From a virus (taxonomy: Duplodnaviria > Heunggongvirae > Uroviricota > Caudoviricetes): a stretch of DNA of 11,814 bases. The position numbers and the translations under genes were made by a program. The stretch lies in the IMG/VR virus record IMGVR_UViG_2579778952_000005, positions 1 to 11,814 of that record. The stretch is one strand, 5' to 3'. Positions within the stretch are counted from its first letter, which is position 1; every line of letters starts with the position of its first letter. Shown in pieces: positions 9,650 to 10,360 of the stretch. The notes beneath the pieces are model-generated. The model worked only from the letters and a program-made list of their open reading frames with translations, ran no database searches and had not been told where the DNA came from.

Positions 9650-10169
9650 TCAGCAACCCCGGTATCAGTTCATCCAGCGCGGCTGCTTTGTTCATGGCTT
9701 TGATGATATCCCGTTTCAGGAAATCAACATGTCGGTTTTCCAGTTCCGGAAAACGCCGCTGTACCGAGAGAGGGATCCCGTCAAGAATACTGGCAATTTC
9801 ACCTGCGATCCGTGACAGCACGAAAGTACAGAATGCGGTTTCCACCACTTCTGCGGAGTCTCTGGCATTCTTCAGCTCCTGTGCGTCGGCCTGCGCACGC
9901 GTAAGTCGATGGCGTTCGTACTCAATAGTCCCAGGCTGGAGATCTGCCTCACTGGCAGCTCTGTAATCCTCAACCTCTTTACGGAGTTTTTCATTTTCGA
10001 TATCAGCCTCCCTCTGTGCATACCACTGAATTGCCATGGAGGTATCAAATACAGATTCAACGCCCTTACCACCTCCGGAGACGCAAGGGAGTCCCTGAGA
10101 CTGCCAGCGTTCAATCGTTCGCGGATCCACGTTGAAAATTTCGGCAAGTTTCTTTTTATTAACCTTCAT
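9624..10169 (-). CDS. nu1: Terminase small subunit Nu1
   Basis: 181-aa ORF, same length as lambda Nu1. From [60 protein letters not shown] onward it is near-identical to lambda Nu1 as recalled. The N-terminal 70 or so residues (DNA-binding domain) are clearly diverged. Confidence 0.93.
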
Positions 10170-10193
10170 GAAACAGTCTCACAACAAACACAG

Positions 10194-10308
10194 GGTCCGA
10201 CATGAAAGTGCCCGAAAATGACTTTTTTAGGCGTTTTCATGTCGGACCTTTTACGGATTCGATATTAGAAAAAACAAATAGTTATGTTCGAGAAGTACCG
10301 ACATGATT
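10194..10308 (-). promoter_or_regulatory. cosB-like terminase-binding region: three R-type repeats with core CCGACATGA and an AT-rich candidate IHF site
   Basis: GGTCCGACATGAAA at 10194-10207, its perfect inverted copy TTTCATGTCGGACC at 10235-10248, and a direct copy ACCGACATGA at 10297-10306. An AT-rich stretch with an IHF-like sequence AACAAATAGTTA lies near 10274-10287. The arrangement mirrors lambda cosN-R3-I1-R2-R1 upstream of Nu1. Confidence 0.65.
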
Positions 10309-10320
10309 TTCCCCGGAAAA

Positions 10321-10360
10321 TTTTCATAAATAGCGAAAACCCGCGCGCCTTCCGCCCCGT
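10321..10360 (-). other. cosN-like cohesive end site
   Basis: Minus strand reads ACGGGGCGGAAGGCGCGCGGGTTTTCGCTATTTATGAAAATTTTCCGG. The flank CGCGGGTTTTCGCTATTTATGAAAATTTTCCGG is the same as the lambda left end as I recall it. The 12-mer at 10356-10345 is GGGCGGAAGGCG against lambda GGGCGGCGACCT. Confidence 0.7.

Follow-up and report, generated by a model that had tools for sequence, protein, structure and literature searches.

The question raised by this locus is whether a cos site that is lambda-like around cosN, and that carries terminase-binding repeats unlike those of lambda next to a small terminase with a diverged DNA-binding domain, has a packaging specificity of its own. A second question is raised by its cohesive end, which departs from that of lambda. 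A sequence-only reading of the window, that is, of the whole stretch of 11,814 nucleotides that was analysed, had taken the co-variation of the repeats and the small terminase as the pattern expected for a distinct specificity, as between lambda and phage 21, and had left the cohesive end as either a decayed or a variant cosN. The lambda and phage 21 pair has been a textbook case of co-variation between the small terminase subunit (TerS) and cosB since the 1980s, and the phage 21 specificity discriminates more than 1000-fold against lambda in both binding and packaging. The comparisons described below indicate that the region is very probably the cos site (cosQ-cosN-cosB) of a lambda-like prophage with the packaging specificity of phage 21.

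Read along the minus strand, which carries the genes of this part of the window, the segment 10100-10460 is a lambda-like cos site (Table 1). The sequence from cosQ to cosN reads GGGTCCT...CACG/GGGCGGAAGGCG/CGCGGG, where the slashes enclose the predicted cohesive end, and bp 1 of this end is found 22 nt past cosQ, compared with 23 nt in lambda. [quoted passage not shown] The flank of cosN had been described from the letters as lambda-like, and this is fully borne out on its right side, where bp 13-45 match lambda at every position; phage 21 differs from the window at four positions of this segment.

Table 1. Positions of the cos subsites and of the terminase genes in the window.
Feature	Position	Strand	Remark
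cosQ heptamer GGGTCCT, packaging-termination subsite	10380..10386	(-)	conservation: PMC4669245
cosN, ACG/GGGCGGAAGGCG/CGCGGG	10340..10360	(-)	
Predicted 12-nt 5' cohesive end GGGCGGAAGGCG	10346-10357	(-)	
cosN-to-cosB segment, bp 13-45	10313..10345	(-)	33/33 identical to lambda
R3 AATCATGTCGGTACTT, predicted TerS-binding site, bp 50-65	10293..10308	(-)	15/16 identical to phage 21 R3
I1, predicted IHF-binding site, bp 74-86	10272..10284	(-)	12/13 identical to phage 21 I1
R2 AAGGTCCGACATGAAA, bp 108-123, inverted relative to R3 and R1	10235..10250	(-)	16/16 identical to phage 21 R2, 1-nt shift
R1 TTTCATGTCGGACCCTG, bp 151-167, predicted accessory site	10191..10207	(-)	15/17 identical to phage 21 R1
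Small terminase gene (terS), Nu1 / gene 1 homologue	9624..10169	(-)	intact, 181 aa
terS, 21-type winged-HTH part	about 10001 to 10169	(-)	
terS, crossover	about 9941-10000	(-)	
terS, lambda-type oligomerisation and TerL-binding part	9624 to about 9940	(-)	
In-frame TerL-Z fusion ORF	8600..9649	(-)	349 aa, junction 9091/9092

The window contains exactly three copies of CCGACATGA, at 10197-10205 (+), 10237-10245 (-) and 10298-10306 (+), all of them between cosN and the start of Nu1. This compares with 0.13 copies expected by chance, and three or more copies were found in none of 200 shuffled sequences. The cosB repeats are these three copies of CCGACATGA/TCATGTCGG and, starting from cosN, the order of the elements is R3, an IHF site within a segment of 71% AT, an inverted R2, and R1. 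The bottom strand of I1, AAACAAATAGTTA, has one mismatch to the consensus WATCAANNNNTTR and is the sole match to the IHF consensus in cosB. The claim of three non-lambda repeats in the lambda arrangement was therefore accurate, and the lambda sequences with which it was made, namely the cohesive end GGGCGGCGACCT and the CGTTTCC-type R boxes, proved correct; the R boxes of the window are of the CATGTCGG type instead.

The match to these repeats is found in phage 21, for which R3, I1, R2 and R1 are annotated as terminase- or IHF-binding sites in GenBank M81255 and OL657228. In a BLAST search of phage records, phage 21 is the annotated best match for cosB together with the 5' part of terS, with 84-86% nucleotide identity. 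All three R boxes have the TCATGTCGG core, which is the phage 21 consensus, in an arrangement and at distances from cosN like those of phage 21: the cores are found at bp 52, 113 and 153 in the window, at bp 52, 112 and 152 in phage 21, and at bp 53, 114 and 155 in lambda. The start of terS is at bp 189 in both the window and phage 21, compared with bp 191 in lambda. Discrimination between lambda and phage 21 is set by bp 56 and 59 of R3 together with residues 20 and 24 in the recognition helix of TerS (Feiss et al. 2015, PMC4669245). Both R3 positions are G in the window, as in phage 21, while lambda has T and C, respectively.

The small terminase has the same affinities in its DNA-binding part. 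The protein belongs to the Phage_Nu1 family (PF07471; 300.8 bits, with a cut-off of 30, and a match to profile positions 1-164 of 164), and its relationship to the two reference proteins changes along its length. Residues 1-68 are 87% identical to gp1 of phage 21 and 59% to Nu1 of lambda, residues 69-140 are 62% identical to the former and 96% to the latter, and for the last 41 residues (141-181) the values are 29% and 98%. This agrees with the earlier description of a diverged N-terminal domain followed by a lambda-like remainder and, judged by these identities, the small terminase is a natural 21/lambda chimera. Its best match among solved structures is PDB 7LWR (48 of 54 residues), the sequence of which is that of residues 1-54 of phage 21 gp1. 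The recognition helix, PRTIERWQS, is the same in the window, in phage 21 gp1 and in 7LWR, and the discriminating residues are E20 and S24 as in phage 21, as opposed to Q20 and E24 in lambda. Given that the R boxes, G56 and G59, E20 and S24, and the whole recognition helix are those of phage 21, the specificity is most probably that of phage 21 and not a new one. What had been proposed from the co-variation of repeats and Nu1 stands in so far as the packaging specificity is unlike that of lambda; the R-box matches, bp 56 and 59 and TerS residues 20 and 24 identify it as the specificity of phage 21 itself, and not as a further one.

The identity to phage 21 is not complete, and a third packaging specificity, neither that of lambda nor that of phage 21 and without cross-reaction with the phage 21 terminase, has to be considered. 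The cosB and winged helix-turn-helix region shares no more than about 85-87% identity with phage 21, and the winged helix-turn-helix differs at 9 of 68 residues. Four of the positions at which the two proteins differ fall in the wing loop, where the window has the lambda-like SGGGKG and phage 21 has SKGSKG. The spacing between R3 and R2 is 1 nt longer than in phage 21, and the corresponding blocks in E. coli genomes form two clusters, one with at least 95% and one with 80-90% identity to the window. Nonetheless, these differences fall outside the known determinants of specificity (PMC4669245), while the recognition helix, including the genetically defined residues 20 and 24, as well as the R-box cores, bp 56 and bp 59, are the same as in phage 21, which makes a third specificity very unlikely.

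With the specificity of phage 21, packaging in an intact relative would begin with the binding of small terminase dimers to R3 and R2 through the 21-type winged helix-turn-helix, with a bend induced by IHF at I1, between these two sites, and with R1 serving as an accessory site. The large subunit, which would be of the lambda type, would be held by the lambda-type C-terminal domain of TerS and would nick cosN at positions 12 nt apart, leaving 5' cohesive ends with the predicted sequence GGGCGGAAGGCG.

At the DNA level the locus is a mosaic in which bp 13-45 are identical to lambda, bp 46 to about 357 are 21-like, and the sequence downstream is lambda-like again, with the crossover placed within bp 358-417, in the conserved ENEKLR region of terS. 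The N-terminal domain of TerS binds DNA and its C-terminal domain binds the large subunit, TerL (PMC4669245), and a TerS with a 21-type N-terminal and a lambda-type C-terminal part, next to a TerL with a lambda-type N-terminus, fits this established domain logic. Judging from these boundaries, the block of roughly 330-370 bp that comprises cosB and the winged helix-turn-helix codons is a recombinational specificity cassette within lambda-like DNA and, by its extent, a minimal one.

The cassette is common. It is present in 1075 of 5426 complete E. coli genomes (about 20%, a genome being counted as positive at a query coverage of at least 80%), including O157:H7 strains and E24377A. It is also functional elsewhere, with the isolated Escherichia phage IdasGreatGrand (PP925829) among the examples. 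The TerS of this phage is 99% identical to that of the window (180 of 181 residues) and its cosB and winged helix-turn-helix coding block is 98.1% identical, while its cohesive end is the canonical GGGCGGCGACCT and its left flank is lambda-like, in both respects unlike the window. Among the contigs with a 21-type cosB sampled from the IMG/VR loci L011-L201, TerS combined a 21-type N-terminal with a lambda-type C-terminal part in 19 cases and was of the 21 type throughout in 2, so that phage 21 itself looks like the minority arrangement in nature. The 21-type cassette, about 350 bp long, enters lambda-type backgrounds as one unit, and homology can be used to annotate the cos sites of such prophages. 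The locus is another copy of the known phage 21 side of the pair, and its mechanistic weight is accordingly small.

The copy in the window is defective. It corresponds almost exactly to a prophage that adjoins potB in E. coli E400634 and two related strains; the alignment, of 11,450 bases, has a single mismatch and two gaps of 1 nt each. The fusion ORF found downstream of terS joins residues 1-186 of gpA to residues 24-192 of the tail protein Z; its TerL part is 95.7% identical to lambda gpA and 70.6% to gp2 of phage 21. The deletion between A and Z amounts to about 6.8 kb, equivalent to lambda 1269-8063, and has removed the nuclease half of TerL and all of the head genes. A second deletion, in the tail module, lies between V and L (about 7095-8202 (-) in the window; L006 12729-13836): V, encoding the tail tube, lacks its C-terminus and abuts L, which lacks its N-terminus, and G, T, H and M are missing. 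In RefSeq, the TerL and Z halves are separate pseudogenes and the V and L genes are truncated. A self-packaging prophage would have an intact TerL and the head genes downstream of terS, and both are absent here. With a truncated TerL and no head genes, this copy would be unable to cut or package DNA on its own, and its cos site and intact terS are remnants that could be used at most in trans, where they would act only with a helper of phage 21 specificity.

On the other side of cosN, the left flank between cosQ and cosN (GGGTCCTTCCGGTGGGGTGGCCTGCCACG, 10358-10400 (-)) has its counterpart, at about 95% identity, in the right genome end of phages cdtI and phi458. The TerS and cosB of these phages are unrelated to those of the window and their cohesive end is GGGCGGGAGCGT. 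Evidently, cos itself is a recombination joint, at which different phage groups meet.

Between cos and the endolysin gene (an M15 peptidase, cut by the end of the window) lie three conserved small phage genes of unknown function, at 10754-11122 (-), 11322-11477 (-) and 11506-11619 (-), which match phrog_1935, phrog_7528 and phrog_4493. A scan of 10100-11814 for promoters and terminators gave nothing bearing on cos above the shuffled expectation. Terminator-like hairpins with T-runs were seen at 11718-11736 and 11430-11455 (-), inside the presumed late operon upstream of cos; the total of four terminator-like sites, against 1.8 expected, is not clearly above chance. In a separate observation, the IMG/VR contigs L215, L241 and L280 carry two or three lambda-like cosQ-cosN matches a few kb apart (at 67, 8202 and 10738 in L215), which is unexpected in a single phage genome; tandem defective elements, PICI-like islands or misassembly are possible causes.

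The cohesive end keeps the left half GGGCGG and has AAGGCG as its right half, where lambda and phage 21 have CGACCT. The departure from lambda in this half, reported by the sequence-only reading, is thus confirmed: GGGCGGAAGGCG differs from GGGCGGCGACCT at bp 7, 8, 9, 10 and 12. The same right half is not confined to this prophage. A 361-bp segment of the window recurs at 100% identity in a prophage of E. coli O114:H49 that is apparently intact and has a full-length TerL and portal, protease, capsid and tail genes, and an exact scan of IMG/VR found AAGGCG in 77 contigs, with at least 20 distinct left flanks and with cosB of both the lambda and the 21 type. TerL is full-length in 38 of the 40 AAGGCG contigs that could be assessed. 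The phage records PhiR46_1 and YDC107_1 combine AAGGCG with a lambda-type cosB, PhiR46_1 being a phage on the strength of its GenBank record; a literature search found no paper on the PhiR (ECOR) phages confirming that PhiR46_1 propagates. No phage record in the searched collection begins with a cohesive end of the AAGGCG type.

A degenerate scan of IMG/VR gave, among the 120 matches listed, 113 with CGACCT, 6 with AAGGCG and 1 with CGACCG; apart from this single CGACCG, intermediates between CGACCT and AAGGCG were not found in lambda- or 21-type right flanks among the matches listed in the degenerate scans. The cos sites of the cdtI type have further alleles, namely GAGCGT, GAGCGG and GAGCAT among the matches listed. 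AAGGCG is thus a discrete and widespread natural allele, and it behaves as a tolerated polymorphism of a kind already described. Of the two origins first considered for this end, the variant cosN stands; decay does not, given that the allele is found in the apparently intact prophage, in PhiR46_1 and in the 77 IMG/VR contigs with their many flanks.

A discrete allele with five of six bases changed, and with no intermediates among the lambda- and 21-type right-flank matches listed, could also be the counterpart of a co-evolved nuclease in the large terminase, with a cleavage specificity of its own at cosN. This was examined with 69 distinct full-length TerL proteins, 34 of them with AAGGCG and 35 with CGACCT. 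None of the alignment columns tells the two groups apart (the best classifier reaches 64%), the mean identity of TerL is 94.4% both within and between the allele classes, and identical TerL proteins are found with both alleles. Published genetics points the same way, since bp 7-12 of cosN tolerate mutation and vary naturally, and the cosN of N15 is cut by lambda TerL as well as its own cosN (PMC4669245). The lack of a TerL residue that tracks AAGGCG fits this tolerance, and a matched nuclease is highly improbable.

That the cos site is a decaying relic is suggested by the prophage itself, clearly defective with its A-Z fusion, deleted head genes and V-L deletion, and is nevertheless just as improbable. 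The 361 bp are unchanged in the O114:H49 prophage, in which the terminase and head module are complete, the 6-nt block recurs in viral contigs of many backgrounds, and the alleles listed in what is an unbiased sample are discrete. Neither cosB, bp 13-45 nor terS shows erosion, and the left flank is that of phage cdtI. Decay of cosN was therefore rejected, since an apparently intact prophage and many viral contigs share its exact sequence. A PICI-type cos site redirected by Rpp was also rejected, since the locus has 21-type R boxes and a bona fide TerS gene.

As a tolerated allele, AAGGCG joins the natural right-half alleles and adds support to the published conclusion that the nuclease places no constraint on bp 7-12. 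It is the only mildly new item at the locus, and it appears to be undescribed in the searchable literature, in which searches with the 12-mer and its reverse complement gave no mention of this cohesive end and matched only unrelated papers on plants and Streptomyces. Within the lambda- and 21-type prophages of E. coli, which form a single pool with free recombination, the CGACCT/AAGGCG dimorphism is linked neither to TerL, nor to the cosB type, nor to the left flank. One idea, which must be regarded as unlikely, is that the dimorphism is maintained and not neutral, in which case it could serve as a barrier of end compatibility. If true, packaging from a cos site of one allele to a cos site of the other would yield a chromosome that is mismatched at 5 of the 12 end positions and should cyclise poorly, and fewer productive hybrids would arise between co-resident prophages.

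Natural variants of the right half are known from other phages: the cosN of N15 and that of phiD326 differ at bp 9 and 12, and that of Gifsy-1 at bp 8, 9 and 11 (PMC4669245). The cohesive end of N15 was confirmed as GGGCGGCGTCCG. N15, phiD326, Gifsy-1 and cdtI (GAGCGT) are like the window in keeping GGGCGG and the flanking CG, with the changes confined to bp 7-12, and AAGGCG, changed at five of six positions, exceeds the published natural variants of this half.

With respect to the two reference phages, phage 21 shares with the window the architecture of cosB, its distances from cosN, the R boxes, I1, G56 and G59, the recognition helix and the start of terS, and differs from it in the CGACCT right half and in TerS from about residue 77 to 181 and TerL, which are of the lambda type in the window. 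Lambda shares cosQ, the left half of cosN, the CG dinucleotides flanking the nicks, bp 13-45, a tripartite cosB with an IHF site, the C-terminal two-thirds of TerS (96-98%) and residues 1-186 of TerL, and differs in the R boxes, in the winged helix-turn-helix (59%), at five of the six cohesive-end positions 7-12 and in a distance from cosQ to cosN that is 1 nt longer. The laboratory counterparts of this combination are the lambda-21 hybrid phages of the Feiss laboratory, in which the small subunit reportedly has a 21 N-terminal and a lambda C-terminal part. Hybrids and window follow one domain logic: specificity for cosB is set by the N-terminal domain, and the C-terminal domain has to match TerL. 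Unlike these hybrids, the chimera of the window is natural and widespread, and its crossover lies within a conserved stretch, around residues 57-76.
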